NCBI RefSeq assembly: GCF_056712565.1
Contig: NZ_CM160072.1
Strand: one strand, 5' to 3'
DNA length: 64,000 nucleotides
Both the position numbers and the translations under genes were made by a program. This document shows positions 14,198 to 36,719 of the stretch, in pieces (positions within the stretch are counted from its first letter, which is position 1; each line of letters opens with the position of its first letter). The notes below the pieces were generated by a model that saw only the letters and a program-made list of their open reading frames with translations, did not search any database and had not been told where the DNA came from.

Positions 14198-14301
14198 GCA
14201 TGAGTGCCAGATTGAAGCAGATCTTCAGGAGTAGAAATAACCGAATCGTTTTTTTCGCAAAACACAGTTTTGAGTGATTCCGTTCAGTAATCAACGCTAC
14301 G

Positions 14302-14562: not shown

Positions 14563-14621
14563 AATTGATGAGTATCTTATTGAAAGATCACAATGTAAAT
14601 CATGCTCCTGTAATGGCTGGA

Positions 14622-17051: not shown

Positions 17052-17092
17052 TCGTCGCCGTTATTTGCTCGATACCCTACAGGAGAATAAAA

Positions 17093-18601
17093 ATGAGCAA
17101 AAAAATAACATCCTTGTTTAACTTCAAGAAGTTGCAGAAATTTTCTTCTGCTCTGATGTTACCAATCGCCATTCTTCCGGCGGCGGGTTTGATTTTAGCC
17201 ATCGGGATTTCATTTAACATTGAGCTGCTGGCGAATTGCGGCGGCCTGATTTTCGCCAACCTTCCTTTGCTGTTTTGTGTCGGTATTGTGATTGGCCTGA
17301 CAGGTGATGGTTCTTCATCACTTTCAGCGATTATCAGCTACATGATCATGAATGCCACGATGGGAACGCAACTTGGCATTACCGCGGAGTCCGTTGCAGC
17401 CAGTAACGGTGACTATGCGATGATCCTCGGGGTACCGACGTTACAAACGGGAGTGTTTGGCGGTTTGATTGTCGCCATCTTTGTTTATCTGCTCTATACC
17501 CGCTTCCACAATATTGAATTGCCTCAGTTTCTTGGTTTCTTCGGTGGAAAACGCTTTGTACCGATTATTACGGCGGTGGCGGCAATTATTGTCGGCTATT
17601 TATTGCCGTGGCTGTGGATACCGGTACAAAAAGGTCTGGCGTCGCTTTCAACGCTGGTGACCAGTGGGCATAACGCGAACTTCGCGGCCTTTATTTACGC
17701 CGTTGGCGAACGTTCGCTGATTCCTTTTGGCCTGCATCATATCTGGAACGTGCCGTTTTATTACAACTTTGGCGACTACATGACCAAATCCGGGCAACTG
17801 GTGACGGGCGATATTCCGGTGTTCTTTGCCCAATTGCGCGACGGTGTTCCGTTGACGGCGGGGTTGTTTATGACAGGTCGTTTCCCAATCATGATGTTTG
17901 CGTTACCTGCCGCCGCGTTGGCGATGTATCAGGAAGCAAAACCGGAACGTAAGGCGCTGATTAAAGGCCTTTTACTCTCCGGTGCGCTGACCACATTTGT
18001 TACCGGGATTACGGAGCCGCTGGAATATGCATTTTTGTTTGCAGCTCCGGTTCTCTACATCATTCACATCTTCTTATATGCCACTTCATTTGTGCTGATG
18101 AACATCCTGAATGTGCACATTGGTCATCCTTTTGCTGGCGGTCTTATTGATTTCGTACTGAATGGCGTTATGCCAAACCGCACGCCGTGGTATCTGGTGT
18201 TCCTGGCAGGCGCGGGCTATGCAGCGATTTACTACACCGTATTTCGGGTACTGATCCGCAAGTTGAATCTGAAAACACCGGGACGTGAGGATGAAGAGAT
18301 TGCCGTTGCAACCACATTAACGCGCGAAGAACGTCCATACCAAATCATCGAGGCAGTAGGTGGTTTCGACAATATCGAAGATGTGGATGCCTGCGCAACA
18401 CGCCTGAGGCTGGCGCTGGTAGACGATAAGAAAGTGAATGAAAAACGGCTGAAGGAGTTGGGGGCTGCGGGTTTAGTGAAACTGGGTGATGGCGGTGTAC
18501 AGGTGATATTTGGCGGCAAATCGCAAATCCTGCGCGACGAAATCAAAACCGTAATGAGCAGACCGCGCCCGACAGAAATGACAGTGGCCTGTGCTAACTA
18601 A
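17093..18601 (+). CDS. PTS glucose-family EIICB component
   Basis: 502 aa; EIIC motif GITEPLEYAFLF and C-terminal EIIB domain with phosphorylatable Cys in ACATRLRL. Confidence 0.8.
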   Translation: MSKKITSLFNFKKLQKFSSALMLPIAILPAAGLILAIGISFNIELLANCGGLIFANLPLLFCVGIVIGLTGDGSSSLSAIISYMIMNATMGTQLGITAESVAASNGDYAMILGVPTLQTGVFGGLIVAIFVYLLYTRFHNIELPQFLGFFGGKRFVPIITAVAAIIVGYLLPWLWIPVQKGLASLSTLVTSGHNANFAAFIYAVGERSLIPFGLHHIWNVPFYYNFGDYMTKSGQLVTGDIPVFFAQLRDGVPLTAGLFMTGRFPIMMFALPAAALAMYQEAKPERKALIKGLLLSGALTTFVTGITEPLEYAFLFAAPVLYIIHIFLYATSFVLMNILNVHIGHPFAGGLIDFVLNGVMPNRTPWYLVFLAGAGYAAIYYTVFRVLIRKLNLKTPGREDEEIAVATTLTREERPYQIIEAVGGFDNIEDVDACATRLRLALVDDKKVNEKRLKELGAAGLVKLGDGGVQVIFGGKSQILRDEIKTVMSRPRPTEMTVACAN

Positions 18602-18651
18602 TTCGAGATTAGCGGGCTGGTTTCAGCCCGCCAGACAGAGAGAGCTGAAGT

Positions 18652-20649
18652 ATGAATTCACAATTACTGGCTAACGCCATCCGAATGTTAAGTGTTGATG
18701 CGATCCAGAAAGCGAACTCCGGTCATCCGGGCGCGCCGATGGGGATGGCGGATATTGCCGAAGTGGTCTGGCGTCGTCACCTGCGTCATAACCCAAAAAA
18801 TCCGCAGTGGTTTAACCGCGACCGCTATATTCAGTCGAACGGGCACGGTTCCATGTTGATTTACGCTTTGCTGCATCTTACAGGCTACGACCTGTCGATG
18901 GATGATATTCGCGACTTTCGTCAGCTCCACTCCCGCACGCCAGGTCATCCAGAATATGGTTATACGCCGGGTGTTGAAACCACCACCGGCCCGTTGGGGC
19001 AGGGCGTAGCTAATGCGGTGGGGATGGCGATTGCGGAGAAGGCGCTGGCGGCAGAATTTAACAAACCGGGCTTTAATATTGTTGATCATCACACATGGCT
19101 ATTTTTGGGTGATGGCTGCCTGATGGAAGGGATCTCCCACGAGGCCTGTGGTCTTGCAGGAACGCTGAAGCTCGGCAATCTGATTGCTATCTGGGACGAT
19201 AACGGTATTTCGATCGATGGTCACGTAGAAGGCTGGTTTGCTGAAGATACGGCTGCCCGTTTTCGTGCCTACGGCTGGCATGTCATTGAAGGCGTTGATG
19301 GTCACGATCCAGAAGAGGTAGATGCTGCGGTGCGTGAAGCGAAAAGCGTCACGGATAAGCCCAGTCTGCTGTGCTGCAAAACGATTATCGGTTTTGGTTC
19401 GCCAAATAAAGCCAACAGCCACGATTGCCACGGCTCGGCGCTGGGTGCAGATGAAGTGGCGCTGGTGCGTGAACGTCTGCAATGGCCGTATGCCCCTTTC
19501 GAAATTCCTGGTGAAATTTATGCCGCATGGGATGCGACCGAGAAAGGCGCGCAGGTTCAACAGGAATGGGATGCACTGTTTGCTGACTACGCGAAGCAGT
19601 GGCCGGAACTGGCGGCGGAGTTTACTCGTCGCATGAAGGGTGATTTGCCTGCTGGCTGGGCCGAGAATATGCAGAAATATGTGCACGATCTGCAATCCCA
19701 TCCGGCGGCGCTGGCAACCCGTCAGGTCAGCCAGAAATGCCTCAATCACTTCGCGGATATGCTGCCGGAACTGATGGGCGGCTCGGCGGACTTGTCGCCC
19801 TCTAACCTGACTCGCCATCAGAAATCGGTTGATTTCACCGGGGAAAATCCGGCGGGGAATTACATCTCCTATGGCGTGCGTGAATTTGGTATGTCGGCCA
19901 TCATGAACGGTCTTGCGCTGCATGGTGGGTTTATCCCTTACGGCGGTACTTTCCTGATGTTTATGGAATATGCGCGTAATGCACTGCGCATGGCGGCGCT
20001 GATGAAGATCCGCTCGGTGTTTGTTTATACCCACGATACCATCGGCCTGGGCGAAGACGGCCCGACACATCAGCCCGTTGAGCAACTGGCGTCGCTGCGT
20101 CTGACGCCGAATATGGAAACCTGGCGCGGTTGCGATCAGGTGGAAGTGGCGGTAGCCTGGCAACAGGCGATTGAGCGCAAAGATGGCCCAACGTCGTTGG
20201 TATTAACGCGCCAACCTCTGGCGCAACAGCCGCGCACCGCTGCACAGTTGGCAGAGATTGCGCGTGGTGGTTATGTACTGAGTGATTGTGACGGTCAGCC
20301 TGAGATGATCCTCATTTCTGCGGGTTCAGAGATTGAGTTAGTGGTCAGCGCCGCAAAAGCGTTAACGGAAGAAGGGCGTAAAGTTCGCGTGGTTTCCATG
20401 CCGTGTACCGAGCGTTTCGATAATCAGGATGCGGCGTACAAAGAGTCGGTATTGCCAAAAGCTGTACGCAAACGTCTGGCGGTAGAAGCCAGCATCGCCG
20501 GATTCTGGGAACGCTACGTCGGCCTGGACGGTAAAGTGATCGGCATGACGAGCTTTGGTGAGTCTGCTCCGGCGAATGTGTTGTTCAAACACTTTGGTTT
20601 TACGCCGGAAAATGTCCTGGCGCAGGCGCGTGAGCTACTGAACAGCTAA
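18652..20649 (+). CDS. Transketolase (additional paralogue, TktA/TktB-like)
   Basis: 665 aa; N-terminus ...[18 protein letters not shown] and ThDP-binding GDGCLMEG motif; clearly homologous to TktA but in an accessory context. Confidence 0.85.
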
Positions 20650-20678
20650 ACCTGCACAAGGGGTGAAAGGATGACCTT

Positions 20679-21524
20679 TTACCCCTTGAAACGGGAGCCA
20701 AGAAACTCTTCACGGGTGCGGTATTTCTCGTAATGCGCCTTGTTTTTATACATAAACAACAGCACCAGCATATCAATAACGCCCATTGCCGGAACGCGAG
20801 TGGAGTCGAAGGCTTCAAAGAAGATTTTATCGCTGACCGCGGTATTGAGTTGATGGGTGGAGAGTTTTGATAACGGAGATTTAATATAGTTAGTGATACA
20901 AACGGATTTGGCACCGCGCTCTTTCACCACTTTAAAGATATCGACCATTAAGTTGGTGCTGCCAGAGTTAGAAATACCAATCGCCAGGTCACGTTTCCCC
21001 ATAGAATATGCCGCATTAATTTGCATTTCCGGGCTGACGTGAACAACGGTTTTTAATCCGAGTTGGCTGAATTTATAAGCACCATAAACGGCCAGAGGGT
21101 TTGAATTTCCGGCAGCAAAAAAGAAAATAGTGTCGCAATTAGCAAGTAGTTTGAGAATGGACTCAAGCACTTCGGCATTAAAAAATTGCGTTGATTGTAT
21201 TAAATCTTCGGCCTGTTTTTTTAATAAAAATGTGGCCAGCGACGTTATATCGGTAAAATCGGTATTATCAGGATAGCTATTGTCAGGATTAATGACTTCT
21301 TTTGCTAATGCAATTTTTAAATGGTAATAACCCTGATAACCTAATTTCTTACAGGTGCGTACGATAGTCGCTTCACTGGCATGGCTTTTTTCTGATAGTT
21401 CAGTGACACTATAGTTCACGACTTCATGTGCGTGGCTAAGAATATAGTCAGCGACCTTTTTTTCCGCCTGATGCAGTGTAGGGTAATTGCTTTGAATCAG
21501 ACTTTTTACGGTTATGTTATTCAT
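20679..21524 (-). CDS. RpiR/MurR-family regulator (HTH + SIS)
   Basis: 281 aa; N-terminal HTH (LSEKSHASEATIVRTCKKLGYQGY) and C-terminal SIS domain; convergent with the PTS-transketolase operon. Confidence 0.8.
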   Translation of the reverse strand: MNNITVKSLIQSNYPTLHQAEKKVADYILSHAHEVVNYSVTELSEKSHASEATIVRTCKKLGYQGYYHLKIALAKEVINPDNSYPDNTDFTDITSLATFLLKKQAEDLIQSTQFFNAEVLESILKLLANCDTIFFFAAGNSNPLAVYGAYKFSQLGLKTVVHVSPEMQINAAYSMGKRDLAIGISNSGSTNLMVDIFKVVKERGAKSVCITNYIKSPLSKLSTHQLNTAVSDKIFFEAFDSTRVPAMGVIDMLVLLFMYKNKAHYEKYRTREEFLGSRFKG

Positions 21525-21724
21525 AATTAGTAAATTTCATTCTGACAGAAAGTGCTGATTATAACATAGTTTTCAGGCGTGGATAGGTGTGAAAAAAATG
21601 AAGGTGTGCAGTGAACGTAATGATTAACAGACCGGTTAATTTTCATGAATTACGTCAACTGCACAAAAATAATTTAAACGGGTGCTCTAATTAAAGCAAA
21701 ACTTATATTTTTATCATTGTATTG

Positions 21725-22630
21725 TCAATTAAATACAAATTGTGTCATTAATTGTGGGTTTCTTAAATATTCTATGCACCACTGACAGGCTTTGCCCATA
21801 CCATCGGAACGAGCGGCAAGAAATAACTTGGTGGCGTGTTTATGTTCGCGCATTGGCTTTTTAAGCAATTTACCGCTGTTCAATAACGGCAATGCCAGAT
21901 GATGTGGAATATAACCAATACCGACGTTTTGTTCTATTAAGGCGATTGCCGTAGCGAAGTCAGGAACAAAAATGGGTTTTTGTCCTTCCAACAACCAGGC
22001 TTGCATCGGGGGGAAGTTAACGGAGGTATCGCGGATACAAATCGCTGGATAGTGACGCAATTCACTGTTTTCTAATGGATGCCGCTTCGCTGCCAGTGGG
22101 TGGAGTGGGCTGACGACAAAATCCCATTCCATTTGTCCGACCGGTTCGCTAATGATGCCTTCACTGCTTGGTACTGCATGAGGAGCACCGTAGACCAGAT
22201 CAGCACGCTTACTGTACAGCGCATCCCAGCAGCCGTTGTATACCTCAAGATCTACCGTCAGTGTTGTTGATGTGAATTGCCGTTCAAAATCTCGAATAAA
22301 TGCCACCAGCAAATCACCAGGAATAATATTGTTCACCGCAATTGTCAGTTCACGCTCAATACCATCGTGAATCAGCACTGTGTTGCGCTTTAATGCTTCC
22401 AGGTCGCCAAGAATAGTTTTGCTATGTTCGATGAAGTAACTTCCCGCTGGCGATAATTCAATATAGCGTCCCTTACGAATGAACAGTTCAACGCCCAGGC
22501 TCTCTTCCGCTTTCTTGATGGTGTAACTGATGGCGGAAGGGACTTTATTTAACTGCTCGGCTGCGGTGGTAATGCTCTGGTGTCTGGCGACCAGATGAAT
22601 AACACGAAGCGTTTCGTCTGAGATGAACAT
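21725..22630 (-). CDS. LysR-family transcriptional regulator
   Basis: 301 aa; N-terminal HTH (ITTAAEQLNKVPSAISYTIKKAEESLGVELF); immediately downstream of the catabolic operon. Confidence 0.8.
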   Translation of the reverse strand: MFISDETLRVIHLVARHQSITTAAEQLNKVPSAISYTIKKAEESLGVELFIRKGRYIELSPAGSYFIEHSKTILGDLEALKRNTVLIHDGIERELTIAVNNIIPGDLLVAFIRDFERQFTSTTLTVDLEVYNGCWDALYSKRADLVYGAPHAVPSSEGIISEPVGQMEWDFVVSPLHPLAAKRHPLENSELRHYPAICIRDTSVNFPPMQAWLLEGQKPIFVPDFATAIALIEQNVGIGYIPHHLALPLLNSGKLLKKPMREHKHATKLFLAARSDGMGKACQWCIEYLRNPQLMTQFVFN

Positions 22631-22707
22631 AAGGCTCCCTGGTCAGTGGTAAAGTGGCTGAATCTCTCCAGATTCAGCCGTAATCATTGCCTGAGTATAC
22701 CCAGGAA

Positions 22708-23931
22708 TTAGCGGTGTTGACTTGCCCGACTGAGAATCGCATACGCGATACATGCCACCAGAATCGAGTCTACCGAAGGGATCGTCGTCAGGGTGAATAA
22801 GCCTTTTACGGTCATAAAGCCAACCGCTGCGCCTATGATCCATGCTGCGAATGTCAGCACTTTAATCTGTGACTCCTGGGCTAACACTGACTCTTGATAG
22901 CCATTACGGCGATAAAGGAAAAAGTCAGCGATATAAATTCCGGCAACGGGTGGCGTGGCGATACCCAGGAACAGCAGAAACGGAATAAACCACGCCATAA
23001 TATCCATACTGCCTACGATGGCGGAAAGGATACCCAGCGCCACGGTAATCTGCCATTTGGGAAAGCGGGTAAGCAGTGTGGAAACCACCAGCGTGCCCTG
23101 GAACATATTGCCCGCGTTACCGGTGACGCAGGCGAAAATCAACAACAGCGCCGCAGGCAGAACCGCACCGAATACCGCCATCGCACCCAGTAAAGATCCC
23201 TGACCACTAATGGCGCTCGGCGTTGCACCCGCCCAGTAGAGCAGAGGGTAGGCAACCAGAAACGTCACGCCTGCGGCAATCAGCGCATGTTTGCGGTTAT
23301 GCACAAAACTACCGAAATCAGGCAGTGTGGCAACCAGCACAATAATGGTGCCAACAACGGTGGAAACGGCGACACCTGTATTCATCTCCACAATCGCCGC
23401 TGGTACTGCCACTTCGGTATGGGTTGCCACATAGAGGATGTAACACAGCACCAGCGCGATAACCGGCACGGCAACCTGGGCAATTTTTCCCAGAACGGCA
23501 AAGCCAAATGCCGTAGAGGCGACAAAAATGACACAGCCAGCCGCCACTAACAGTGCCAGTGGAACTTCCAGTCCATGTTGAGCCAGTAAGTCATGTACCG
23601 AATGACCAAACATATTGGCGGTAACGGCAATCCAGCCGAACAGACTTATCGCCATCAAAATGTTAATGGCGATGGCCCCTTTTTCGCCAAACGAATATTT
23701 CACAATGCCATACGTTGGCAGGCGGGCTTTTTCTCCCACGCTAATGGTGATGGCTGAAAGTAAGGTCAGAATGACGCCGCCTAACAATACGACGCTAATT
23801 AAACTGCCGCTGGAAAGTTGATTGCCGAGGCTTGAGGATGACAACAGCACAGGTGTGACGGCAATACCCAGCAAAATCATGGCAATACGCAATCCTGATG
23901 CCGTATTCAGATTCTCTTCTTTTTTACGCAT
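22708..23931 (-). CDS. NCS1-family (CodB-like) permease
   Basis: 407-aa polytopic membrane protein with CodB-like architecture; assignment by pattern only. Confidence 0.6.
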   Translation of the reverse strand: MRKKEENLNTASGLRIAMILLGIAVTPVLLSSSSLGNQLSSGSLISVVLLGGVILTLLSAITISVGEKARLPTYGIVKYSFGEKGAIAINILMAISLFGWIAVTANMFGHSVHDLLAQHGLEVPLALLVAAGCVIFVASTAFGFAVLGKIAQVAVPVIALVLCYILYVATHTEVAVPAAIVEMNTGVAVSTVVGTIIVLVATLPDFGSFVHNRKHALIAAGVTFLVAYPLLYWAGATPSAISGQGSLLGAMAVFGAVLPAALLLIFACVTGNAGNMFQGTLVVSTLLTRFPKWQITVALGILSAIVGSMDIMAWFIPFLLFLGIATPPVAGIYIADFFLYRRNGYQESVLAQESQIKVLTFAAWIIGAAVGFMTVKGLFTLTTIPSVDSILVACIAYAILSRASQHR

Positions 23932-23956
23932 AGTATGTTCCCTTTATAAATGCGCG

Positions 23957-24346
23957 TTACACAGTATGAAAATGCCCGGTGTATTTGCGCCAGCTACCCA
24001 GTTCTGTAATTTCCCGTTGGCCTTCGGTCAGCCAGTTTTCTGCCAGTACGCCCAGCACTTCGCTACCATCGGCAAGTTTGATTTTGCCAATTGCCAGCCC
24101 AGCGGGTTCGCTCATTAACAGAGCGGCAAAACTGGCCAGCGGTAATTGCCAAATTTCTACGTCGACGTGTGTTCCTCCTTCATTCACGCGAATCATTCCC
24201 GGATGGCGATCATTAATACTCCACAACCGGTAATGGGCGTCAGTTCGGTCTTCACGGACAAAAATACCGCCCGCTTTTTGCATATTTGGGTTGAGTTCCA
24301 GGCCGCGCATCAGCGTTCCGTTAACGGCTAAAAGCGTTGTAGTCAT
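23957..24346 (-). CDS. AIG2/gamma-glutamyl-cyclotransferase-like protein
   Basis: 129 aa; N-terminus LLAVNGTLMRG resembles the GGCT/AIG2 fold start; assignment tentative. Confidence 0.5.
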   Translation of the reverse strand: MTTTLLAVNGTLMRGLELNPNMQKAGGIFVREDRTDAHYRLWSINDRHPGMIRVNEGGTHVDVEIWQLPLASFAALLMSEPAGLAIGKIKLADGSEVLGVLAENWLTEGQREITELGSWRKYTGHFHTV

Positions 24347-24362
24347 TGTGTTCTCCAGAGAA

Positions 24363-25319
24363 TTAAAGGGTTATCCATGTACCGCTCTGATGCGCCAGGG
24401 CTGCTTTTATGGTTTGCGGTGAAGTAATCAGGCCGCTGGCCTGTTTGCCTTGTTGCTGGCTGGCATTGATGAAATCAACAATGGCTTCCACTTTGGGTTG
24501 CATACTGCCGACACCAAACTGACCTTCCCGCAACAGCGTTTGCGCTTCGGCAACGCTGATAGCGTCGAGCCACTGTTGTTGTGGTGTACCAAAGTTAATC
24601 GCTACTTTTTCTACACCGGTGGGGATCACCAGCAGATCTGCGCCTAACTGACTGGCGAGCAGCGCGGAGGCCAGATCTTTATCGATCACGGCTTCTACAC
24701 CTTTCAGTTGTTGCCCGTCTCGCACCACCGGAATACCGCCGCCGCCGCAGGCAATAACCAGATATCCCTGGCGCACCAGGTGAGCGATGGTGTCGTGCTC
24801 AATAATTTCCAGTGGTGCAGGAGAGGGAACTGTACGCCGCCAACCACGCCCGGCGTCCTCCATCAGCGTCCAGCCGAGTTGTTGTTGGCGTTGTTGGGCC
24901 GTTGCTTCATCGAGAAACGCGCCAATTGGTTTACTGGGGCTGGCGAAAGCATCGTCATGTGGGCTGACTCGCGTTTGTGTCACCAGGGCAATTACCGGTT
25001 TGTTTATGCCACGGCGAGCCAATTCGTTATGCAGCGCTTTCTGGAACATGTAGCCAATTGCACCTTGTGTATCACCCACGGCGTAATCAAGTGGAACCGG
25101 AGAAACTTCGTTACTGGCGAGTTCAGAGCGGCGCAGAATAAAGCCCACCTGCGGGCCATTACCGTGGGTTAGTACCAGGTCCCATCCGGCTTCAACCATA
25201 TCAACGATATGTTGCACGCTTTCCATCACTGCAACATATTGATCGGGAATACTATTGCGTTGCTCGTCCTGAATGAGCGCATTGCCGCCAACCGCGACGA
25301 CAGCCAGTGGCTTAACCAT
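24363..25319 (-). CDS. Carbamate kinase-like protein
   Basis: From MVKPLAVVAVGGNAL...; amino-acid kinase fold with ACGGGGIPVV motif; ORF-track start is a spurious upstream extension. Confidence 0.8.
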   Translation of the reverse strand: MVKPLAVVAVGGNALIQDEQRNSIPDQYVAVMESVQHIVDMVEAGWDLVLTHGNGPQVGFILRRSELASNEVSPVPLDYAVGDTQGAIGYMFQKALHNELARRGINKPVIALVTQTRVSPHDDAFASPSKPIGAFLDEATAQQRQQQLGWTLMEDAGRGWRRTVPSPAPLEIIEHDTIAHLVRQGYLVIACGGGGIPVVRDGQQLKGVEAVIDKDLASALLASQLGADLLVIPTGVEKVAINFGTPQQQWLDAISVAEAQTLLREGQFGVGSMQPKVEAIVDFINASQQQGKQASGLITSPQTIKAALAHQSGTWITL

Positions 25320-26736
25320 GATGGTTCTCCTTTGCGACGATCTCCGCCAGTGCACGTACAGCGGCGACAAAACAGGCCATCGGCGCAGTGGTGATCCCGG
25401 CACCAATTTGCCCGACCCCCGCTTGTTTGTGGGCGATACCCGTATTGATGACCGGTAAAATGCCGCGATCGGTCACTTTACGCGCATCAATTCCTGCTGC
25501 GGTGGGGGCAAAATTGAGGGCTGGAAGTGTAAATGCGGGGTTACCGCCGAGGGTGATGGCTTGCATCCGACGGCTGTTATTGGTGGCATCGGCAGGGGTG
25601 CCTCCCACAAATTTGACGATCGCCGGAGACGACGCCATCGCGAAGCCACCCATACCTGCGGTTTCAGTAATTGCGCTATCACCCAGGTCAGCAGCAGCGT
25701 CGTCAACGCCAAATCCGGGGAAGAACAGACCTTCAACGGCATTGGCAGGAGCCTGGAACCAGCGATCGCTAGTACCGGAAAGCCGAATACCAAAACTCAC
25801 CCCGTTACGCGCCATCACCGTAACCATTGAACTGAACGGTACATTGGCGGCGGCATCCATCATTGCTTTACAGGCGGCCATCGACAGATTGAGGAAGAAG
25901 TGATCGTTACCGGTGATAAATGCCACGACGCGCTGGATATGTTCCTGTGGAAGAGAGCAGGCCAGCAATGCCGGGAGCAGGCGCTTAATCAGCAAACCGG
26001 TAGCGGCAGCATTGCGGTTATGAACTTCATCCCCCATATGCAGCGCCTGCGCCATTAATGGCTTGAGTTCCAGCTCGCCGTGTTGTGCGATTGCTGCTTT
26101 CATTGCCGGCGCCAGTTCATCGCGCATCCAGGCCAGACGATTGAGAACTTCATCGTTATTGGCGCCAAAACGGAGAACCTTACCCAGACCTTCATTGAAA
26201 TTGCTAAAAGTACGATGGCCGTTGGTTTTGTTTTCTACCACCCATAACGGCATCGACGGGCTGATGATGCCTGCCATTGGGCCAACCGCGTGATAATGAT
26301 GACAAGGGGCAAGGTCGATTTCGCCTGCGTTTATTTGGTTTTCAGCGTCTTGCTGGCTGGTGGCCCAACCTTCGTACAGCATGGCACCAATAATCGCCCC
26401 TTTTACCGGACCACACATCTCTTCCCAGGCAATCGGCGGGCCAGAGTGCAAAATACGTTTTTGTTCAGCCATTGCTGGAATGGCCTCTTTAGCGAGCATG
26501 ACATCCACCAGCATGGGCTGTGCTTCGAGATAACGTGTCATGGCGATTTGGTTGGCATTTTCTACCAGGGGATGACGTAGCAACGATGCCAGATCCAATC
26601 CAGCGTCAATATCGCCTTGTGCTGGTGGCTGCCAGTTGAGTGCAATTGCGCTTCCCCCGGCATGTTGAATATTGTCAGCAAAACTGTGTAGTCCCGCGTT
26701 CACAACCTTCAAAGGCTGATTAAATAAGGTATTCAT
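25312..26736 (-). CDS. YlbE-like (DUF1116) protein
   Basis: About 474 aa from MNTLFNQPL; start overlaps the fdrA-like stop by 4 bp; paralogous to the K-12 allantoin-region ylbE. Confidence 0.7.
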   Translation of the reverse strand: MNTLFNQPLKVVNAGLHSFADNIQHAGGSAIALNWQPPAQGDIDAGLDLASLLRHPLVENANQIAMTRYLEAQPMLVDVMLAKEAIPAMAEQKRILHSGPPIAWEEMCGPVKGAIIGAMLYEGWATSQQDAENQINAGEIDLAPCHHYHAVGPMAGIISPSMPLWVVENKTNGHRTFSNFNEGLGKVLRFGANNDEVLNRLAWMRDELAPAMKAAIAQHGELELKPLMAQALHMGDEVHNRNAAATGLLIKRLLPALLACSLPQEHIQRVVAFITGNDHFFLNLSMAACKAMMDAAANVPFSSMVTVMARNGVSFGIRLSGTSDRWFQAPANAVEGLFFPGFGVDDAAADLGDSAITETAGMGGFAMASSPAIVKFVGGTPADATNNSRRMQAITLGGNPAFTLPALNFAPTAAGIDARKVTDRGILPVINTGIAHKQAGVGQIGAGITTAPMACFVAAVRALAEIVAKENHHG

Positions 26737-28292
26737 GCGTTTAGCCCCTTTTTCTGCAACTGAGTCTGTGCAACGGTGCTGGCCCATAGCGCCGCCTGTG
26801 CATTGCTGCTGGCGATGATGACCCCTGCATTTTGTAGTGCTCTTATCTGCTGACTGCGTATTTGCGGATCAGCTTCCGTTCCGCAAACGTGCGCAATCAG
26901 CAACGGTGCGTTATTCATGTCGATGTGTGAAAGTTGGTCCAGTAATTCGCTGGCAGGCGCCGTGGAAGCGCCATAACCAAGTACCAGGTCGAATAACACG
27001 ACGGCAGTGTGTGAGTCGTTGAGTTCGTTGAGCAGACGTTGATTGCGCAGAGTCGGGTCGATCATTGGATGCGGTTTGCCACGGGTGAAATCATCGTCGC
27101 CCATATCGATCAACGTGTGATCTTCGCTTTGCCAGATATTTGCCAGAGCACGATTACCCGCAACTGGCGTATTGGAAGCTGCGCTGAATCCCTTTTGTTG
27201 GCAGATAAGTTGCGCTTCGTAGCAGAAGGTTCCTCCGGCGAAAACACCGCGTATCGCCTGGCGATGGGCTGGCAGGCGCTGACAGGCGTTTTGTAACATT
27301 GTGAGATCGGCGCAGGAAATCTCGGTCTCGACAGCCGGAAGTGGCTGAGCATTCAGTAACGCTACGGCGATATTTGCGGCGCTGGCAAGTGTGGTGGCCG
27401 CGGTGATATTGGGACGTGCCAGATCATGCGGATTCGCACCGAGGAAATTCACCACCACGGGTTTTCCACAAGCCTCGGCGCGCTCCAGAATAGTCTGGGC
27501 AACGATCGGTGAAGGCGGTTTTGAAATCAGCACAATCACGCGAGTTTCATCGTCTTGCGCCAGCGCATCTAAAGCGAAGAGCATCGATATTCCACCAATC
27601 TCTTCACTGAGATCATGCCCACCGGTTCCCAACGCCTGAGAAATACCCGCTCCGAGCTGGTCGATTCGGCAAGTCACTTCCTGTAGCCCGGTGCCTGACG
27701 CGCCAATAACACCAATTGCTCCGCGTTTCACCACATTAGCGAAGCCTAACGGAATGCCGTTAACAATGGCGGTTCCACAGTCAGGTCCCATTACGATGCG
27801 CTGACGTTCTCGGGCAAGCGTTTTGATAGATTTTTCCTGCCCGATACTGACGTTATCGCTGAACATCATCACGTTCATTCCGAGGTTTAACGCTTTAATT
27901 GCTTCGGCGGCGGCGTAGTCTCCCGGTACAGAAATGAGTGCCAGGTTGGCTTCGGGTTCGGCTTCCAGTGCCATTTCCAGGCTGACCTTTTCCGGTGTTT
28001 TAATGCCACTATCCGTTTCATCATCGGGTTTGCTGGTCAGACGTTGCTGGGCCAGTACCAGTGCTTCATTGCAAATATCTTCTTCACCCATGACTGCAAT
28101 CACTAAATCATTGGGACTGGCGTTGATTTCGTTACCCAGACCCGCATCGCGCAATTGTTCGAGATTATTGGGCGTTCCCATGACGACCGAGGCCTGTTGA
28201 ATACCGGGCAACTTGCTGATTTGCGCGGAAATCTGCATCAGAGAAACTGAGTCCTGATAAAGATTACTGAAAACTTTATATTTAACTTTCAT
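26733..28292 (-). CDS. FdrA-like protein (CoA-binding, succinyl-CoA-synthetase-alpha-like)
   Basis: 519 aa; resembles FdrA of the K-12 allantoin region. Confidence 0.75.
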   Translation of the reverse strand: MKVKYKVFSNLYQDSVSLMQISAQISKLPGIQQASVVMGTPNNLEQLRDAGLGNEINASPNDLVIAVMGEEDICNEALVLAQQRLTSKPDDETDSGIKTPEKVSLEMALEAEPEANLALISVPGDYAAAEAIKALNLGMNVMMFSDNVSIGQEKSIKTLARERQRIVMGPDCGTAIVNGIPLGFANVVKRGAIGVIGASGTGLQEVTCRIDQLGAGISQALGTGGHDLSEEIGGISMLFALDALAQDDETRVIVLISKPPSPIVAQTILERAEACGKPVVVNFLGANPHDLARPNITAATTLASAANIAVALLNAQPLPAVETEISCADLTMLQNACQRLPAHRQAIRGVFAGGTFCYEAQLICQQKGFSAASNTPVAGNRALANIWQSEDHTLIDMGDDDFTRGKPHPMIDPTLRNQRLLNELNDSHTAVVLFDLVLGYGASTAPASELLDQLSHIDMNNAPLLIAHVCGTEADPQIRSQQIRALQNAGVIIASSNAQAALWASTVAQTQLQKKGLNA

Positions 28293-28386
28293 GCTGTTAC
28301 GCCTGTTTCATTCCGCCCGATAGCAAAATTCGGGCAAAGCATCCCCGTGTAGCCCCATAAACGGGCTACGGGAGAAAAGGTTGAAA

Positions 28387-29247
28387 TCAATTCATGGTGT
28401 TCAGGGTTCGAAAGCCATGCAGCATTCCTGCAAGGCAATCTACTCCTGACGTTGCGCCAAATTGCATGACCTGTTCTGCACAGGATGCGATTGTCATTGC
28501 CGATGCGCTCCCAACCAGTTGTGCGAGTAACTGGCAAATCGGTTCTGAAAAATGTCCCTGAAGCGCACGCTCCAGATAATGACGACTGATATCCGTGGTG
28601 TTGTGCGCATGTTGATCAATTGCCTGCTGCAACCGGTATTGATGATCGGCAAGTGGTGCAGGGAGTTGCCATAACCAGAGCGCTGCCAGATAGCCCAACA
28701 AATAGTCATCTCCATCGGGCGTTAAGCCTTTACCAAAGCCGATCAGTTGTGGCACCTGGCGTTCCAGCGCATCTGGATGCTCCATAATTGCTAATCCCTG
28801 GTGCGTGAGACTATCCGGCAGGTGCAATGTGCTTTGAACGTTATGTTCCAGACAAAATAAAAGCCGTTGCGATGCCATCGTTGGGTAGTGCTGGAAAACC
28901 AAAGGGAATGCCTCAAGTGTCAGCATTCTCCCCACAAATGGCGACTGCCAGAGCGTTGCGTTTTCGAGCGCCACACAAAATCGAGGTGTCCGCAGTAAGC
29001 CTTGGGTTAACTGAATGGGATCTGAATGGGCAATCTCTCTTCGCCAGTCCCAACATTCAGGTAGCCAGACTCTGGCAGCATCAGGGAGATTCAGATACGT
29101 TTGCGCACACAACAGAGTGATGAATGTTCCCGCGTCTGAATACAGATTTACCGCATGTTTAAAAGCGCTATGTAGACGTAAATCTTGCGTTTCATTCTGC
29201 GGGAAAAGATATCCCAACGACGATGCGCAAAGCGTAACCTGTACCAT
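28387..29247 (-). CDS. YlbF-like (DUF2877) protein
   Basis: 286 aa; position and size consistent with the third member of the FdrA/YlbE/YlbF triad; family call by context. Confidence 0.55.
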   Translation of the reverse strand: MVQVTLCASSLGYLFPQNETQDLRLHSAFKHAVNLYSDAGTFITLLCAQTYLNLPDAARVWLPECWDWRREIAHSDPIQLTQGLLRTPRFCVALENATLWQSPFVGRMLTLEAFPLVFQHYPTMASQRLLFCLEHNVQSTLHLPDSLTHQGLAIMEHPDALERQVPQLIGFGKGLTPDGDDYLLGYLAALWLWQLPAPLADHQYRLQQAIDQHAHNTTDISRHYLERALQGHFSEPICQLLAQLVGSASAMTIASCAEQVMQFGATSGVDCLAGMLHGFRTLNTMN

Positions 29248-29252
29248 CGGCG

Positions 29253-29921
29253 TTAGCCTTCCAGACCTGCAATAATGGCTTTGGAATCAGTAACCCAACC
29301 GAAAATGGCACCTTGTGCTTTGATCATCTCGAGGGCGTATTTCTGGAATTCCGGGAAATAGGAGCCGACACAATCTTCCGGGATAATGCATTCATAGCCA
29401 CGATCATTTGCTTCGCGCACGGTGGTGGTTACGCAAACTTCGGTTGTTACACCACAAACTATCAGCGTCTTGATACCGTGGTTTTGCAAAATCAGATGTA
29501 AGTCGGTTTGATAAAACGCGCCTTTGCCAGGCTTATCAATCACCGGTTCGCCTGCCACCGGGTACAGTTCAGGAATGATGTCATGACCTGCTTCACCTCT
29601 GACCAGAATGCGTCCCATCGGTCCTGGTTCACCAATAAAGGTTTTTCCGCCGCGCGTCAGTTTGGCTGGCGGGCAGTCGCTTAAGTCTGCACGATGGCCT
29701 TCACGAGTATGAATAACCATAATTCCTTTTTGACGTGCGGCTGCCAGCACCTCTGTACATGGTGCGATAGCCGTGCGTACCAGTGAAACATCATTGCCCA
29801 GAGCCTCACCGAAGCCCCCTGCTTCGACAAAGTCACGCTGCATGTCGATCATGACCAGTGCAGTTGTGCGCGGATCAAAAGGTAATTCAAAGGGTTGAGC
29901 CTGAAAAATGGATTGCGTCAT
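29253..29921 (-). CDS. Isochorismatase-family cysteine hydrolase (RutB-like amidohydrolase)
   Basis: 222 aa; motifs ALVMIDMQ, LIVCGVTTEVCVTTT and AIFGWVTD parallel the RutB catalytic triad regions; first gene of the operon. Confidence 0.8.
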   Translation of the reverse strand: MTQSIFQAQPFELPFDPRTTALVMIDMQRDFVEAGGFGEALGNDVSLVRTAIAPCTEVLAAARQKGIMVIHTREGHRADLSDCPPAKLTRGGKTFIGEPGPMGRILVRGEAGHDIIPELYPVAGEPVIDKPGKGAFYQTDLHLILQNHGIKTLIVCGVTTEVCVTTTVREANDRGYECIIPEDCVGSYFPEFQKYALEMIKAQGAIFGWVTDSKAIIAGLEG

Positions 29922-30177
29922 GGTAAATCTCCTGTCTGATGTTTAAACGATCCAGTTGTTCTGAGAACGAGTATTCAGGAGAAAAGCGACACAAAACAGG
30001 AAAAAAGTTTGCCGCACAGCAACGAAATTTTTGCATTCAGCAGGTGGTGTGATGACGAATGTGAAGGGAGTCAAAGAGTGGCATACAGCAACAAATTTTT
30101 TGATGCTGTATGGTTTTGAGATTAAAAAAATCGTTGAAATTGTGTGAGCTTAATCATCAGATTTAGCGACTATGGCG

Positions 30178-30987
30178 TTACTTTTTAACACCATACTGTG
30201 TAAACCATTCCAACATTCGCTGCCAGCCGTCTTTCGCAGATTCGGCATGATAGCTCGGACGATAATCGGCGTTGAACGCATGCCCTGCATCCGGGTACAC
30301 GATAATCTCTGCTTTCGCGTTTGCTGCCCGCAGCGCCTGGCGCATCGTTTCCACGCTCTCTTGCGGAATGCTGTTATCCTGGCCGCCATATAAGCCGAGA
30401 ACCGGAGCGTTAAGATCGGTTGCGATATCAACAGGTTGTTTCGGTGAATTCAGCGACTTATCGCCCGTCAGTTTGCCGTACCACGCCACTGCGGCTTTTA
30501 GCTGTGGATTATGCGCGGCATACAGCCAGGTGATACGTCCACCCCAGCAGAATCCGGTGATCATTAAACGATGAACATCGCCGCCGTTGCGGGAAGCCCA
30601 ACTGGCGACATGATCGAGATCGGCCAGCACCTGCGAGTCAGGCACTTTTGCTACCAGACCGCTAAGCAACGTGGGGATATCGGCAAAATCATTCGGATCG
30701 CCTTCGCGGAAGTAAAGTTCAGGTGCGATAGCCAGATACCCCTCCAGCGCCAGACGGCGACAAATGTCGCGGATATGTTCATGCACGCCAAAAATTTCCT
30801 GCACTACAATGACCACTGGCAGTGGGCCATCGCTTTGCTTTGGTCTGGCATGGTAAGCAGGCATGTTATCCCCTTGTGAAGGGATAGAGGTGAAGCCCGC
30901 CACAATCGCGTCGTCCGGAGTCTGAACGATGGTCGAAGCGAGAGGCGATGCAGCAGGTGCAAATCCAGATTGTTGTGTTGTTGCCAT
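30178..30987 (-). CDS. ysgA: Dienelactone hydrolase family protein YsgA
   Basis: From MATTQQSGFAPAA... (269 aa); alpha/beta hydrolase with GFCWGG nucleophile elbow. Confidence 0.88.
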   Translation of the reverse strand: MATTQQSGFAPAASPLASTIVQTPDDAIVAGFTSIPSQGDNMPAYHARPKQSDGPLPVVIVVQEIFGVHEHIRDICRRLALEGYLAIAPELYFREGDPNDFADIPTLLSGLVAKVPDSQVLADLDHVASWASRNGGDVHRLMITGFCWGGRITWLYAAHNPQLKAAVAWYGKLTGDKSLNSPKQPVDIATDLNAPVLGLYGGQDNSIPQESVETMRQALRAANAKAEIIVYPDAGHAFNADYRPSYHAESAKDGWQRMLEWFTQYGVKK

Positions 30988-31248: not shown

Positions 31249-32013
31249 ATGTCCAAGTCTGATGTTTTTCATCTCGGCCTCACTAAAAACGATTTACAAG
31301 GGGCTACGCTTGCCATCGTCCCTGGCGACCCGGATCGTGTGGAAAAGATCGCCGCGCTGATGGATAAGCCGGTTAAGCTGGCATCTCACCGCGAATTCAC
31401 CACCTGGCGTGCAGAGCTGGATGGTAAACCTGTTATCGTCTGCTCTACCGGTATCGGCGGCCCGTCTACCTCTATTGCTGTTGAAGAGCTGGCACAGCTG
31501 GGCATTCGCACCTTCCTGCGTATCGGTACAACGGGCGCTATTCAGCCGCATATTAATGTGGGTGATGTCCTGGTTACCACGGCGTCTGTTCGTCTGGATG
31601 GCGCGAGCCTGCACTTCGCACCGCTGGAATTCCCGGCTGTCGCTGATTTCGAATGTACGACTGCGCTGGTTGAAGCTGCGAAATCCATTGGCGCGACGAC
31701 TCACGTTGGCGTGACAGCTTCTTCTGATACCTTCTACCCAGGTCAGGAACGTTACGATACTTACTCTGGTCGCGTAGTTCGTCACTTTAAAGGTTCTATG
31801 GAAGAGTGGCAGGCGATGGGCGTAATGAACTATGAAATGGAATCTGCAACCCTGCTGACCATGTGTGCAAGTCAGGGCCTGCGTGCCGGTATGGTAGCGG
31901 GGGTTATCGTTAACCGCACCCAGCAAGAGATCCCGAATGCTGAGACGATGAAACAAACCGAAAGCCATGCGGTGAAAATCGTGGTGGAAGCGGCGCGTCG
32001 TCTGCTGAAATAA
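31249..32013 (+). CDS. udp: Uridine phosphorylase
   Basis: [31 protein letters not shown]... matches Udp. Confidence 0.96.
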
Positions 32014-32018
32014 AAAAA

Positions 32019-32040
32019 CGCTCCCCAACTTCGGGGAGCG
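32019..32040. terminator. GC-rich hairpin (cgctccccaacttcggggagcg) between convergent udp and tctA-like genes; A-tract on its 5' side
   Basis: Inverted repeat read in the sequence immediately after the udp stop; likely a bidirectional terminator. Confidence 0.55.
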
Positions 32041-32047
32041 ATACCAG

Positions 32048-33538
32048 TTATTGACGCCGTAAACGCATTATTTTGCGGATTATTGGCGTCAGTAGCGTAA
32101 AGGCGGCCAGAGTCAGCAATGCCAGAGTGATCGGTCGGGTATACAGAAAGTCGAGTGAACCCCCTGAAAGCGACAGCGCACGGCGAAAATTACTTTCCGC
32201 CATTGGCCCCATAATCAATGCCAGGACCACTGGCGACGCCGGATATCCCCCTTTCTGCATGAAATAGCCCACTACGCCCGCAATCAACATAATGCCGACA
32301 TCAAACAGGCTGTTGTTCAGTGCATAAGTCCCGACCACACAAAGTGCGAGGATCATCGGTGTGAGAATATTGCCGGGAATTTTCACCACATTACCGATGA
32401 CTTTCAAAGAGAGCAGTCCAAGAACTAGTAGCATGAAGTAACAGAAGATCATGCCGACAAACAGCGTATAAACCATATCACCGTGGTCGGTAAACATCAG
32501 CGGGCCTGGTTGCATTCCCTGTAACGTTAACGCGCCCAGCATGATGGCGGTTACCGCATCGCCAGGGATCCCCAGCGTCAGCATAGGTAACAATGCGCCA
32601 CCGGTGCAGCCATTCGCGCCTGCCTCACAGGAGGCCACAGCTTTAATTTCACCCTTACCAAAGTTTTCTGGTGTCTTACTGAAACGACGAGTTTCGTTAT
32701 AGGCAACAAAAGCTGCAATATCCGCCCCCGCACCGGGGATCATGCCGATAAAAACCCCTAATCCTGATGAGCGCAAAATGGTTAATGCGATGCGGCGTAG
32801 TGTTTGCCAGGGCAGTAACAGACTGCCGATAGCCACCTTCGCGCCCCGACGAATTTGCTGGTTTTGCTCCATAGAGCGGAATGCTTCTGAAGCAGCAAAT
32901 AAACCAATCATCACCGGGATAAATGGCACATTCATCAGCTCCACAAATCCACCTGTAAACCGTGGAAAACCGCCCATTGGATCAAGGCCTATCGTTGCGA
33001 TCAGCAATCCGCCAACCCCGGCAATCAGCCCCTTAATCAGCGACTCACCGGAAATACTGGCAATAATGCTCAGTCCGAAGGTTGCCAGGGCGAAGGACTC
33101 CGAGGCACTAAATTTCAGCGCCCAACTGGCAAGTACCGGAGAGAGAAACATCAGCACGATAATGCTGAGCGTTCCGCCACTAAAGGAAGAGAACGTGGCG
33201 GCACTCAATGCCAGCCCTGCTTTTCCCTGTTTCGTCAGCTCATAACCATCAATAGCGGTGGCTGCGGCGGCAGGTGTTCCGGGAATTTTGAGCAAAATTG
33301 CGGTGATAGAACCACCGTAGACGCCACCAAAAAAGACGCCGCAAATCATCAACAATCCAGAAACAGGCTCCATGCCGTAGGTGAAAGGCAGCAAAATCGC
33401 CACACCCATGGTCGCTGTCAGACCAGGCAAAGCGCCAATCACAATACCCAGCATCACCCCAAAAGTGGCAAACAGCAGCGCCTGAGGATTATTGAGTAAT
33501 GTCGAAAAACCCTGAGTTAAAAGTTCACTTTCAAACAT
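32048..33538 (-). CDS. Tripartite tricarboxylate transporter, large permease TctA-like
   Basis: 496-aa polytopic membrane protein, last gene of the tctCBA-like set. Confidence 0.8.
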   Translation of the reverse strand: MFESELLTQGFSTLLNNPQALLFATFGVMLGIVIGALPGLTATMGVAILLPFTYGMEPVSGLLMICGVFFGGVYGGSITAILLKIPGTPAAAATAIDGYELTKQGKAGLALSAATFSSFSGGTLSIIVLMFLSPVLASWALKFSASESFALATFGLSIIASISGESLIKGLIAGVGGLLIATIGLDPMGGFPRFTGGFVELMNVPFIPVMIGLFAASEAFRSMEQNQQIRRGAKVAIGSLLLPWQTLRRIALTILRSSGLGVFIGMIPGAGADIAAFVAYNETRRFSKTPENFGKGEIKAVASCEAGANGCTGGALLPMLTLGIPGDAVTAIMLGALTLQGMQPGPLMFTDHGDMVYTLFVGMIFCYFMLLVLGLLSLKVIGNVVKIPGNILTPMILALCVVGTYALNNSLFDVGIMLIAGVVGYFMQKGGYPASPVVLALIMGPMAESNFRRALSLSGGSLDFLYTRPITLALLTLAAFTLLTPIIRKIMRLRRQ

Positions 33539-33550
33539 TGCTGGCCCCTG

Positions 33551-34060: not shown

Positions 34061-34073
34061 CCGTACCTCAGGT

Positions 34074-35048: not shown

Positions 35049-35072
35049 TGCTTTTATATCCTTATTTATCAG

Positions 35073-36696: not shown

Positions 36697-36719
36697 TAGT
36701 CGTTTCCTTTAATCATGGT

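Follow-up and report, generated by a model that had tools for sequence, protein, structure and literature searches.

A mobile eight-gene cassette of Escherichia coli and its probable role in the catabolism of triuret

Gene layout of the locus and families of its proteins

The 64,000-nucleotide stretch of contig NZ_CM160072.1 (NCBI RefSeq assembly GCF_056712565.1), here called the window, was derived from an Escherichia coli of the B2, extraintestinal pathogenic (ExPEC) type, and its region 21500–30200 was 100% identical to the avian pathogenic E. coli (APEC) strain O1, to S88, to ATCC 11775, and to others. A preliminary description made from the letters alone had placed seven packed, co-directional minus-strand genes and a LysR regulator gene at 21725–29921. 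This layout, the subject of the present analysis, was confirmed by the open reading frames (ORFs) and by the RefSeq annotation of APEC O1, whose sequence is identical, and the gene calls of both sources agreed. The genes, in the direction of transcription, were as follows.

29253–29921, minus strand: cysteine hydrolase of the isochorismatase family, TrtA-type, 222 residues
28387–29247, minus strand: AllH-like protein (DUF2877), 286 residues
26733–28292, minus strand: FdrA/AllF-like protein, 519 residues
25312–26736, minus strand: AllG-like protein (DUF1116), 474 residues
24363–25319, minus strand: carbamate kinase, 318 residues
23957–24346, minus strand: AH_C-like protein, 129 residues, labelled "allophanate hydrolase-related" in RefSeq
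22708–23931, minus strand: NCS1 permease, cytosine-permease-like, 407 residues
21725–22630, minus strand: LysR regulator, 301 residues

From the hydrolase to the LysR gene, the genes were spaced by gaps of 5 and 94 nt, overlaps of 4 nt (AllF/AllG) and 8 nt (AllG/carbamate kinase), and gaps of 16, 25, and 77 nt. The LysR gene was located at the 3' end of the operon, co-directional with the other genes and not divergent. The locus was already known and annotated, yet functionally uncharacterised. Its ORFs (APECO1_2632-2639) are listed as hypothetical in the report of the tkt1 genomic island (PMC3349570), and a 2026 genome paper on strain BEN2908 speculates on pyrimidine degradation (PMC12928451). 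The search of the available library found no paper characterising the eight genes or assigning a substrate to them, in agreement with the earlier view of an uncharacterised pathway.

All seven genes were found together in 11 of the 11 loci examined, with unrelated flanks. They were colinear in Caballeronia, Dyella, Photobacterium profundum, Psychrobacter, Serratia fonticola, two Citrobacter, E. coli E69, the IncFIB/FIC plasmid pEC598, and one JGI metagenome contig, and were all present in a rearranged order in Avibacterium. The retention of the same set in all 11 loci, from distant taxa, puts the gene set far beyond chance, and its rearrangement in Avibacterium without loss of a gene indicates selection on the gene set rather than inherited synteny. 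In the Avibacterium sp. locus (L012, 8876–16985), the order was hydrolase, AllF, AllG, AH_C, and permease, followed by AllH on the opposite strand and then by the kinase, and the cluster was located between recA and mutS of this bird-associated member of the Pasteurellaceae. Homologues of the hydrolase with 79–88% identity occurred in Enterobacterales, Vibrionales, Alteromonadales, Pasteurellales, Moraxellales, Burkholderiales, Neisseriales-type Silvimonas, and Xanthomonadales, and the AH_C and AllH homologues occurred in the same taxa, often on the same contigs. When the E. coli proteins were compared with those of Burkholderiales, the identities were 83% for the hydrolase, 78% for AllG, 73–75% for the permease and the kinase, 71% for AH_C, 67% for AllF, 57% for LysR, and 37% for AllH. 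The AllH-like protein was the least conserved of the cassette (~37% identity between E. coli and Caballeronia or Dyella). The LysR gene accompanied the cassette in Caballeronia, Dyella, Serratia, Citrobacter, and the plasmids, and was located upstream in Photobacterium and Avibacterium.

The hydrolase had been labelled RutB-like, and this label was not upheld. The protein scored 279.8 bits with the NCBIfam model of the biuret amidohydrolase BiuH (NF050097, cut-off 370) and 111.9 bits with that of the ureidoacrylate amidohydrolase RutB (TIGR03614, cut-off 378), and no rut gene was adjacent in any of the 11 loci. The closest solved relative was TrtA (PDB code 6XIX, 8.7e-80), followed by BiuH (PDB codes 6AZO and 6XJM), with RutB far behind; the identity was 58.7% to TrtA and 53.5% to BiuH. 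The triuret hydrolase TrtA, which discriminates ~10^4-fold against biuret, converts triuret to 1-carboxybiuret and NH3, and carboxybiuret loses its carboxyl group spontaneously to form biuret (half-life ~20 min; PMC7948467). The catalytic triad of TrtA is D24/K129/C162, triuret is contacted by F29, E72, K132, and Q202, and the second-shell sites F35, N41, A134, E160, Y187, and I205 are Y, Y, S, D, T, and V in BiuH (PMC7948467).

The window hydrolase and its 120 nearest database homologues were aligned with MAFFT and compared at these positions. The catalytic D, K, and C and the cis-peptide residues V157-T158 were kept in the window hydrolase and in 120/120 homologues, and so were all four substrate-contact residues, F29, E72, K132, and Q202. 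The six discriminating sites were all TrtA-type (FNAEYI) in the window hydrolase and in every one of the 120. The signatures of the reference TrtA (FNAEYI) and the reference BiuH (YYSDTV) were cleanly split among 150 library representatives, a set from a 50%-identity search with the hydrolase that is too coarse to resolve the cassette clade. The score below the cut-off and the TrtA-type signature thus place the protein outside BiuH, and it is predicted to be a triuret hydrolase producing 1-carboxybiuret and NH3. The clustering with biuH and atzF seen for TrtA was not shared; neither a BiuH-type hydrolase nor an allophanate hydrolase with an amidase domain was present in the 11 cassette loci. 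Two-domain isochorismatase fusions of a BiuH-type and a TrtA-type domain were observed among the representative proteins (P0121-P0128, P0132, and P0135); in P0122 and P0123, one domain lacked the catalytic D, K, and C, which suggests a pseudo-enzyme domain.

The three following proteins matched the subunits of AllFGH, as the preliminary description had expected. AllFGH was characterised in 2024 as the oxamic transcarbamylase, which interconverts oxalurate and phosphate with carbamoyl phosphate and oxamate (PMC11326118), and AllK is the catabolic carbamate kinase of this route (PMC11326118, PMC9843812). The AllF-like protein contained the Pfam domains CoA_binding (2.5e-9) and Ligase_CoA (1.7e-39), scored 499 bits with the NCBIfam FdrA subfamily model (cut-off 433), and matched the FdrA structure (PDB code 3DMY, 9e-85). 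The AllG-like protein matched Pfam PF06545 AllG (5.5e-98) and PDB code 3CLQ (1e-118), and the AllH-like protein matched Pfam PF11392 AllH (5e-27). The AlphaFold2 model of the AllH-like protein had a predicted confidence (pLDDT) of 91.6 and gave no significant fold match in the PDB. The identities to K-12 AllF, AllG, and AllH were 42, 49, and 24%, respectively, and those to YahF, YahG, and YahE were 43, 46, and 27%. The carbamate kinase, whose gene overlapped the AllG-like gene, passed the cut-off of the NCBIfam arcC equivalog model (TIGR00746, 366.2 bits, cut-off 358.25) and scored 378 bits with PRK12352 (cut-off 266), so that its earlier identification stood; it was 50% identical to YahI and 42% identical to AllK.

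The three-subunit composition of AllFGH and a catabolic carbamate kinase as its partner were thus both found in the cassette. The genes were not orthologous to b0518-b0520 and were located between metE and ysgA, not downstream of allECD. The earlier statement that these genes are paralogues of the K-12 allantoin-region genes, with another order and other partners, was correct, and it left unmentioned the yahE-F-G-I cluster of K-12, whose order H-F-G-K is the same. The window triad is a third E. coli paralogue set of AllFGH, beside allFGH and yahEFG. Among 5426 complete E. coli genomes, allFGHK was present in 5407, yahE-J in 4666, and the cassette in 1553. Since allFGHK is near-universal, the cassette is an accessory extra set and not a replacement. 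By family, the triad is predicted to be an AllFGH-type carbamoyltransferase.

The AH_C-like protein had been described as AIG2/GGCT-like. This label proved imprecise, the protein being of the type of the allophanate hydrolase C-domain. Its sequence matched the structural-genomics entry PDB 5C5Z at 100% identity, was homologous only to the C-domains of the allophanate hydrolases 4GYR, 4ISS, and 5I8I, and covered positions 472–595 of the 600-position NCBIfam allophanate hydrolase model (104.7 bits, cut-off 487). The amidase-signature N-domain was therefore missing and the AH_C (GGCT-like) C-domain present. Its orthologues carried Pfam PF21986, and the family had 53 sites at least 97% conserved, of which 24 were common to the C-domain of the G. 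bethesdensis allophanate hydrolase. It was unrelated to TrtB, the AtzH/HpxZ-like carboxybiuret decarboxylase. The C-domain of allophanate hydrolase was reportedly proposed by Fan et al. in 2013 to decarboxylate an N-carboxy compound, and the cassette protein may likewise decarboxylate or channel an unstable N-carboxy intermediate.

The permease belonged to the NCS1 family (60 bits), as described earlier, and was not a CodB orthologue, since it scored 145.7 bits with the NCBIfam cytosine permease model (NF008241) against a cut-off of 326. Its orthologues carried PF02133, and it is predicted to import the substrate. The LysR protein scored 289 bits with the NCBIfam PunR model and 214 bits with AllS, each below its cut-off; PunR and AllS are regulators of purine-related genes.

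Distant relatives and exchange of the upstream enzyme

Metagenome contigs were scanned by alignment with AllG as the anchor, which gave 80 loci with an AllG 52–98% identical to the window AllG; all 80 were nearer to the window protein than either K-12 paralogue is. A scan of contigs for the AllH-like protein by exact-peptide patterns gave 3 loci, the patterns being too strict. Sixteen loci extended for 6 kb or more to either side of AllG; of these, 13 had a hydrolase of the BiuH/TrtA class, 12 had AH_C, 15 had carbamate kinase, and only 3 had a CodB-like permease. Every single hydrolase was TrtA-type (FNAEYI or FNSEYI). The following architectures were distinguished.

(i) L017, L019, L020, L022, and L024: E. 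coli type
(ii) L040, L043, L044, L060, and L067: BiuH-containing, with AllH-AllF-AllG-carbamate kinase, a BMP-type ABC (ATP-binding cassette) transporter, BiuH, a TrtA-type hydrolase, and AH_C
(iii) L046 and L052: allophanate-hydrolase type, with a TrtA-type hydrolase and a complete allophanate hydrolase (847 bits), oriented divergently to AllF-AllG-carbamate kinase
(iv) L042, L057, and L038: hydrolase-AllH-AllF-AllG-carbamate kinase, without AH_C
(v) L018, L086, and L084: AtzD type, with the cyanuric acid amidohydrolase AtzD adjoining the triad (579, 571, and 414 bits, respectively, cut-off 360)

In the AtzD type, a different enzyme was placed within the operon of the triad and kinase or directly upstream of it. 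The locus L018 (3046–11960) had the order AtzD-NCS2 permease-AllH-AllF-AllG-carbamate kinase-LysR, with AllG 78% and LysR 66% identical to those of the window, and contained no TrtA, AH_C, or CodB-like gene. The locus L086 (859–7302) had the order AllH-AllF-AllG-AtzD-carbamate kinase. The kinase and LysR were present in the AtzD-type loci where the contig reached that far. AtzD and TrtA are unrelated enzymes with the common product 1-carboxybiuret (PMC7948467). Because two non-homologous producers of carboxybiuret were found upstream of an orthologous triad and kinase, the clade would be expected to act on carboxybiuret or a derivative. This exchange of AtzD and TrtA is the strongest indication, by comparison of gene clusters, that the triad works on carboxybiuret or on what it becomes. 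The AtzD loci would in turn imply a phosphorolytic route for cyanuric acid that dispenses with AtzEG/H/F and BiuH.

The second and third architectures bear on the fate of allophanate. In the BiuH-containing loci, BiuH was genuine (407 bits against a cut-off of 370, with YYSDTV, in L043), and AH_C was a stand-alone protein of 132 residues whose gene overlapped the TrtA gene by 4 nt, or, in L060, a full-length ORF of ~626 residues. No amidase domain was found in L043. In loci of this type, something other than AtzF must consume allophanate, and a second phosphorolysis would do so. In L046 and L052, no BiuH was present beside the allophanate hydrolase, so that allophanate must form from carboxybiuret by decarbamoylation; a phosphorolytic loss of the terminal carbamoyl group would supply it.

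The transporter slot of the relatives was filled by a BMP-type ABC transporter, an NCS2 permease, or an unannotated permease of ~520 residues. Hydrophobic membrane proteins of ~510–540 residues, 45–57% mutually identical, filled this slot in several relatives (L057, 2583–4202 and 4224–5801; L054, 5009–6547; L023, 11825–13423). NCBIfam gave no match for the three members searched, nor did Pfam for the L054 member searched, and the family may be an unannotated family of ureide transporters. The NCBIfam and Pfam searches gave no identification of L018:1881–3116.

The association has also been met in other organisms. In comammox Nitrospira and ammonia-oxidising archaea, biuH/trtA are collocated with allFGHK and codB, and the authors read these genes as two adjacent pathways (PMC12625717).

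Predicted route and rival explanations

The eight genes are probably a single, horizontally mobile unit for the catabolism of a carbonyl-polyureide, triuret being the likeliest. The substrate had been called not evident from the sequence; its class could be narrowed, by sequence comparison, to triuret and carboxybiuret. A more tentative proposal concerns the chemistry of the triad. The AllF/G/H-like complex is possibly a carboxybiuret (and allophanate):phosphate carbamoyltransferase at the centre of an ATP-yielding "carboxybiuret funnel", which would be fed by triuret in the cassette and by cyanuric acid in the AtzD relatives. Like oxalurate, carboxybiuret and allophanate are N-acylureas that end in a carboxylate, which makes them plausible substrates.

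In this scheme, whose substrates and reactions are all predictions, the CodB-like permease would import triuret, and the TrtA-type hydrolase would cut one terminal amide to give 1-carboxybiuret and NH3. The triad would then use phosphate to convert carboxybiuret to carbamoyl phosphate and allophanate and, probably, allophanate to carbamoyl phosphate and carbamate. The carbamate kinase would transfer the phosphate of carbamoyl phosphate to ADP, yielding ATP and carbamate, and the carbamate would decay to NH3 and CO2. All four nitrogen atoms would be released, with up to 2 ATP per triuret and no need for BiuH, AtzF, or urease. The AH_C-like protein would handle the unstable N-carboxylated intermediate by decarboxylation or channelling, and the AllS/PunR-like LysR protein would activate the operon. 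The general course proposed earlier, from uptake through amide hydrolysis and carbamoyl phosphate to ATP, was supported at each step by homology and gene context. It also fits the view of the AllFGH authors that urease-negative enterics, as which E. coli, Salmonella, and Citrobacter freundii are described, recover ureido nitrogen through a transcarbamylase and carbamate kinase (PMC11326118).

Several points weigh against the triuret route. The support for these proteins is comparative throughout. The identity of the hydrolase to TrtA is only 59%, compared with 53.5% to BiuH, and the six-site signature is a contrast of two classes, so that a third specificity with TrtA residues may be conceived. 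The triad is about equally far from AllFGH and YahEFG, and no sequence feature identifies its substrate. The double phosphorolysis gives AH_C no necessary role, and AH_C was missing from the otherwise complete clusters L042, L057, and L038. The metagenome ORFs were called crudely, from stop to stop, and labelled with hidden Markov models built for this analysis. The comammox-type clusters pair a full hydrolytic route with the triad, which could serve a separate pathway there (PMC12625717). Finally, the rest of the E. coli genome is not known to contain biuH, atzF, or urease, and their absence there is a background assumption.

The main rival is a biuret phosphorylase, an alternative with the same substrate and the same first step. 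AH_C would then decarboxylate carboxybiuret as an analogue of TrtB, and the triad would cleave neutral biuret with phosphate to carbamoyl phosphate, with urea left over and 1 ATP gained. Every gene would thereby receive a role, AH_C was translationally coupled or adjacent to the TrtA-type gene in L043, L054, and L052, and carboxybiuret decays to biuret spontaneously (PMC7948467). However, urease-negative hosts would be left with half of the nitrogen as urea, the full-length allophanate hydrolase of L052 would have no substrate in the absence of BiuH, L018 combines AtzD, the triad, and the kinase without AH_C, and biuret is neutral, unlike oxalurate. This explanation is considered unlikely. For the carboxybiuret route, the frequent position of AH_C beside the TrtA-type gene or within a full allophanate hydrolase, together with its absence from some complete clusters, suits a helper. 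Such a protein may assist a decarboxylation that also occurs spontaneously, or may act as a channel for the N-carboxy intermediate.

The distance of the hydrolase from TrtA leaves some room for another N-acylurea or ureide, such as an acylated or formylated biuret or an oxidation product of urate or pyrimidine, handled by undescribed specificities. The hydrolase fell short of the BiuH equivalog cut-off and shared only 59% identity with TrtA, the cassette hydrolases formed a tight group of their own (79–88% identity across classes), and a CodB-like permease could suggest a ring compound. Against this, all residues in contact with triuret in the TrtA crystal structure and the second-shell residues were kept, and the AtzD, BiuH, and allophanate hydrolase of the relatives all belong to the network of triuret, cyanurate, and biuret. 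Such a different substrate was judged quite unlikely.

The membership of the triad in the AllF/G/H family, the adjacent kinase, and the AllS-like regulator could also be taken for a second oxamic transcarbamylase in an alternative branch of oxalurate and allantoin metabolism, the hydrolase making oxalurate from an amide precursor; the collocated genes are interpreted in this way in PMC12625717. This reading is highly improbable. The triad shares only 42/49/24% identity with AllFGH, allFGHK is already present in essentially every E. coli genome, no allB, C, D, or E was next to the cassette in the 11 loci, and the partner enzymes (TrtA-type, BiuH, AtzD, and allophanate hydrolase) do not make oxalurate. 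A Rut-like pyrimidine degradation, with CodB-like uptake of cytosine or uracil and cleavage of ureidoacrylate by the hydrolase, had been suggested by the earlier RutB-like label and by the speculation in PMC12928451. It is hardly credible and was rejected on scores and context: the similarity to RutB (112 bits) and CodB (146 bits) was weak and did not approach the respective equivalog cut-offs of 378 and 326, the hydrolase had 280 bits on BiuH and the TrtA signature, no RutA/C/D/E/F homologue was in or beside the cassette in any locus, and the relatives replaced the permease with unrelated transporters.

Spread, surroundings, and comparison with known systems

The cassette was detected in 1559 of the 5426 complete E. 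coli genomes, with at least 80% coverage in 1553 (~29%, mainly B2 ExPEC). The 8.2-kb unit was also carried by 82 conjugative plasmids of PLSDB, 78 from Escherichia and 4 from Klebsiella, of which 80 matched at 90–95% identity (~94.6% in typical listed matches). The plasmid sources included poultry, pig, and human urine, blood, and stool. In pEC598 (L007, NZ_KP119165.1, 5982–14160), the complete eight-gene cassette was located on a large IncFIB/FIC plasmid with unrelated DNA on both sides, near bacteriocin-immunity and iron-transport genes. In Serratia fonticola (L016, 9010–17811), the cassette followed directly on pldA-recQ-rhtC-rhtB-pldB-yigL. This site is in the same neighbourhood as in E. 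coli, where rhtB-pldB-yigL precede bioP-metR-metE and the island.

In the window, the cassette made up the right-hand half of the 16-kb "tkt1 genomic island" that has been reported between metE and ysgA (PMC3349570). In E. coli E69, the cassette stood by itself between these two genes, and both the hxlB-ptsG-tkt1-rpiR module and the udp-rmuC islet were missing. The whole island as a single unit was rejected, since E69 and the plasmids carried the cassette without hxlB-ptsG-tkt1-rpiR, so that two separate units make up the tkt1 island. The left half (14208–21746) was a separate sugar-phosphate module. Its left edge had a pseudogene of the type VI secretion tube gene (tssD/hcp) with an internal stop in a stretch with a G+C content of 0.34–0.41, beside two small hypothetical genes. 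An islet between udp and rmuC, absent from E69, encoded a TctC/B/A-like tripartite tricarboxylate transporter, homologues of 2-dehydro-3-deoxygalactonokinase and of an aldolase, and an IclR regulator. The features of these surroundings were as follows.

~14876–16009: tssD/hcp, annotated pseudogene
16494–17051: hxlB-like, 6-phospho-3-hexuloisomerase
17093–18601: ptsG-like, glucose-type phosphotransferase system IIBC
18652–20649: tkt1, transketolase
20679–21524: RpiR regulator
32012–37607: islet between udp and rmuC

The leader upstream of the hydrolase gene and the intergenic region before the LysR gene contained the following features. The conserved blocks were obtained by phylogenetic footprinting of the E. 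coli, Citrobacter, and plasmid sequences.

29922–30177, minus strand: presumed promoter and operator region of the operon, 256-nt leader
30082–30112, minus-strand operon leader: dyad with 14-nt arms
30004–30033: 30-nt repeat, 77% identical to the dyad region
30060–30075: CRP-like TGA-N6-TCACATT, kept in E. coli, Citrobacter, and the plasmid
29969–29978: conserved block CTGAATACTC, kept in E. coli, Citrobacter, and the plasmid
22656–22679, minus strand: hairpin with a perfect 10-bp stem and a 4-nt loop, GGCTGAATCT/AGATTCAGCC, between the permease and LysR genes

The sigma-70 consensus scan found no match within the 256-nt leader, and the promoter and terminator scans gave counts at or below the shuffle expectation. 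These features are compatible with an activator-dependent promoter. A leader riboswitch, for example of the guanidine type, was unsupported, as Rfam gave no match over the threshold, the leader included. The hairpin had no T-run on its 3' side and is possibly a partial terminator or an RNA stabiliser.

The distribution of the cassette permits a speculative ecological reading. The cassette was enriched in B2 ExPEC and APEC, was carried by IncF plasmids of poultry, human urine, and human blood origin, and was present in Avibacterium. Humans and birds lack uricase. Triuret (carbonyldiurea) is described as a specific product of the oxidation of urate by peroxynitrite. If the triuret route is correct, urease-negative B2 ExPEC and APEC and the hosts of ColV-type plasmids would harvest nitrogen and energy from triuret, and a marker of inflammatory urate oxidation would be linked to bacterial nutrition in hosts without uricase. 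Eight hypothetical genes in ~29% of complete E. coli genomes and on IncF virulence plasmids would gain a testable function, and the recently discovered AllFGH transcarbamylase family would gain a second class of substrates. The route would be an energy-conserving alternative to the hydrolytic routes of triuret, biuret, and cyanuric acid, with relevance to fertiliser impurities, s-triazine breakdown, and the use of organic nitrogen by nitrifiers. In addition, the function of the allophanate hydrolase C-domain, which is disputed, could be examined in the setting of this cassette.

In the cassette as in K-12 AllFGH-AllK (PMC11326118, PMC9843812), a carbamate kinase follows a triad of subunits from the same Pfam families. 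The two systems would share one logic, the phosphorolysis of an N-acylurea to carbamoyl phosphate and substrate-level ATP, with a release of nitrogen independent of urease. The cassette proteins, however, are paralogues (42/49/24% for the triad and 42% for the kinase) in the order H-F-G-K instead of F-G-H-K. They are encoded in an accessory island, they are associated with a TrtA-type hydrolase, AH_C, and an NCS1 permease and not with AllB/C/D/E, and their predicted substrate is carboxybiuret or allophanate and not oxalurate.

The first enzyme was of the same type as in the TrtA-(TrtB)-BiuH-AtzF pathway of Herbaspirillum sp. BH-1 and Rhizobium leguminosarum (PMC7948467), with which the cassette shared the catalytic triad, the substrate contacts, 6/6 specificity residues, and a module derived from allophanate hydrolase. 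In contrast to that pathway, the cassette had no BiuH, TrtB, or AtzF amidase domain and contained AllFGH-type proteins and a kinase instead, so that its route would yield ATP and would not be purely hydrolytic.

The K-12 cluster yahE-yahF-yahG-yahI-yahJ was similar in gene order, in divergence (27/43/46/50%), in having an attached hydrolase, and in having a LysR gene nearby. It differed in that YahJ is a metal-dependent amidohydrolase, AH_C and an NCS1 permease are absent, and the cluster was present in 4666/5426 genomes, compared with 1553/5426 for the cassette. The yahE-yahJ segment of K-12 (L003, 5926–12508) gave megablast matches at ~24 places per genome, which points to a dispersed repeat inside it.

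The AtzD-AtzEG-AtzH-AtzF route of Pseudomonas sp. ADP also passes through 1-carboxybiuret and allophanate, and the relatives L018, L086, and L084 carried AtzD. That route is hydrolytic and decarboxylative, without carbamoyl phosphate or ATP, and the E. coli cassette has no ring-opening enzyme. The arginine deiminase pathway resembles the proposed route in that phosphorolysis of a ureido compound gives carbamoyl phosphate, from which carbamate kinase makes ATP. Its substrate, however, is citrulline, and the transcarbamylase fold of aspartate and ornithine transcarbamylase (ATC/OTC) is unrelated to AllFGH.

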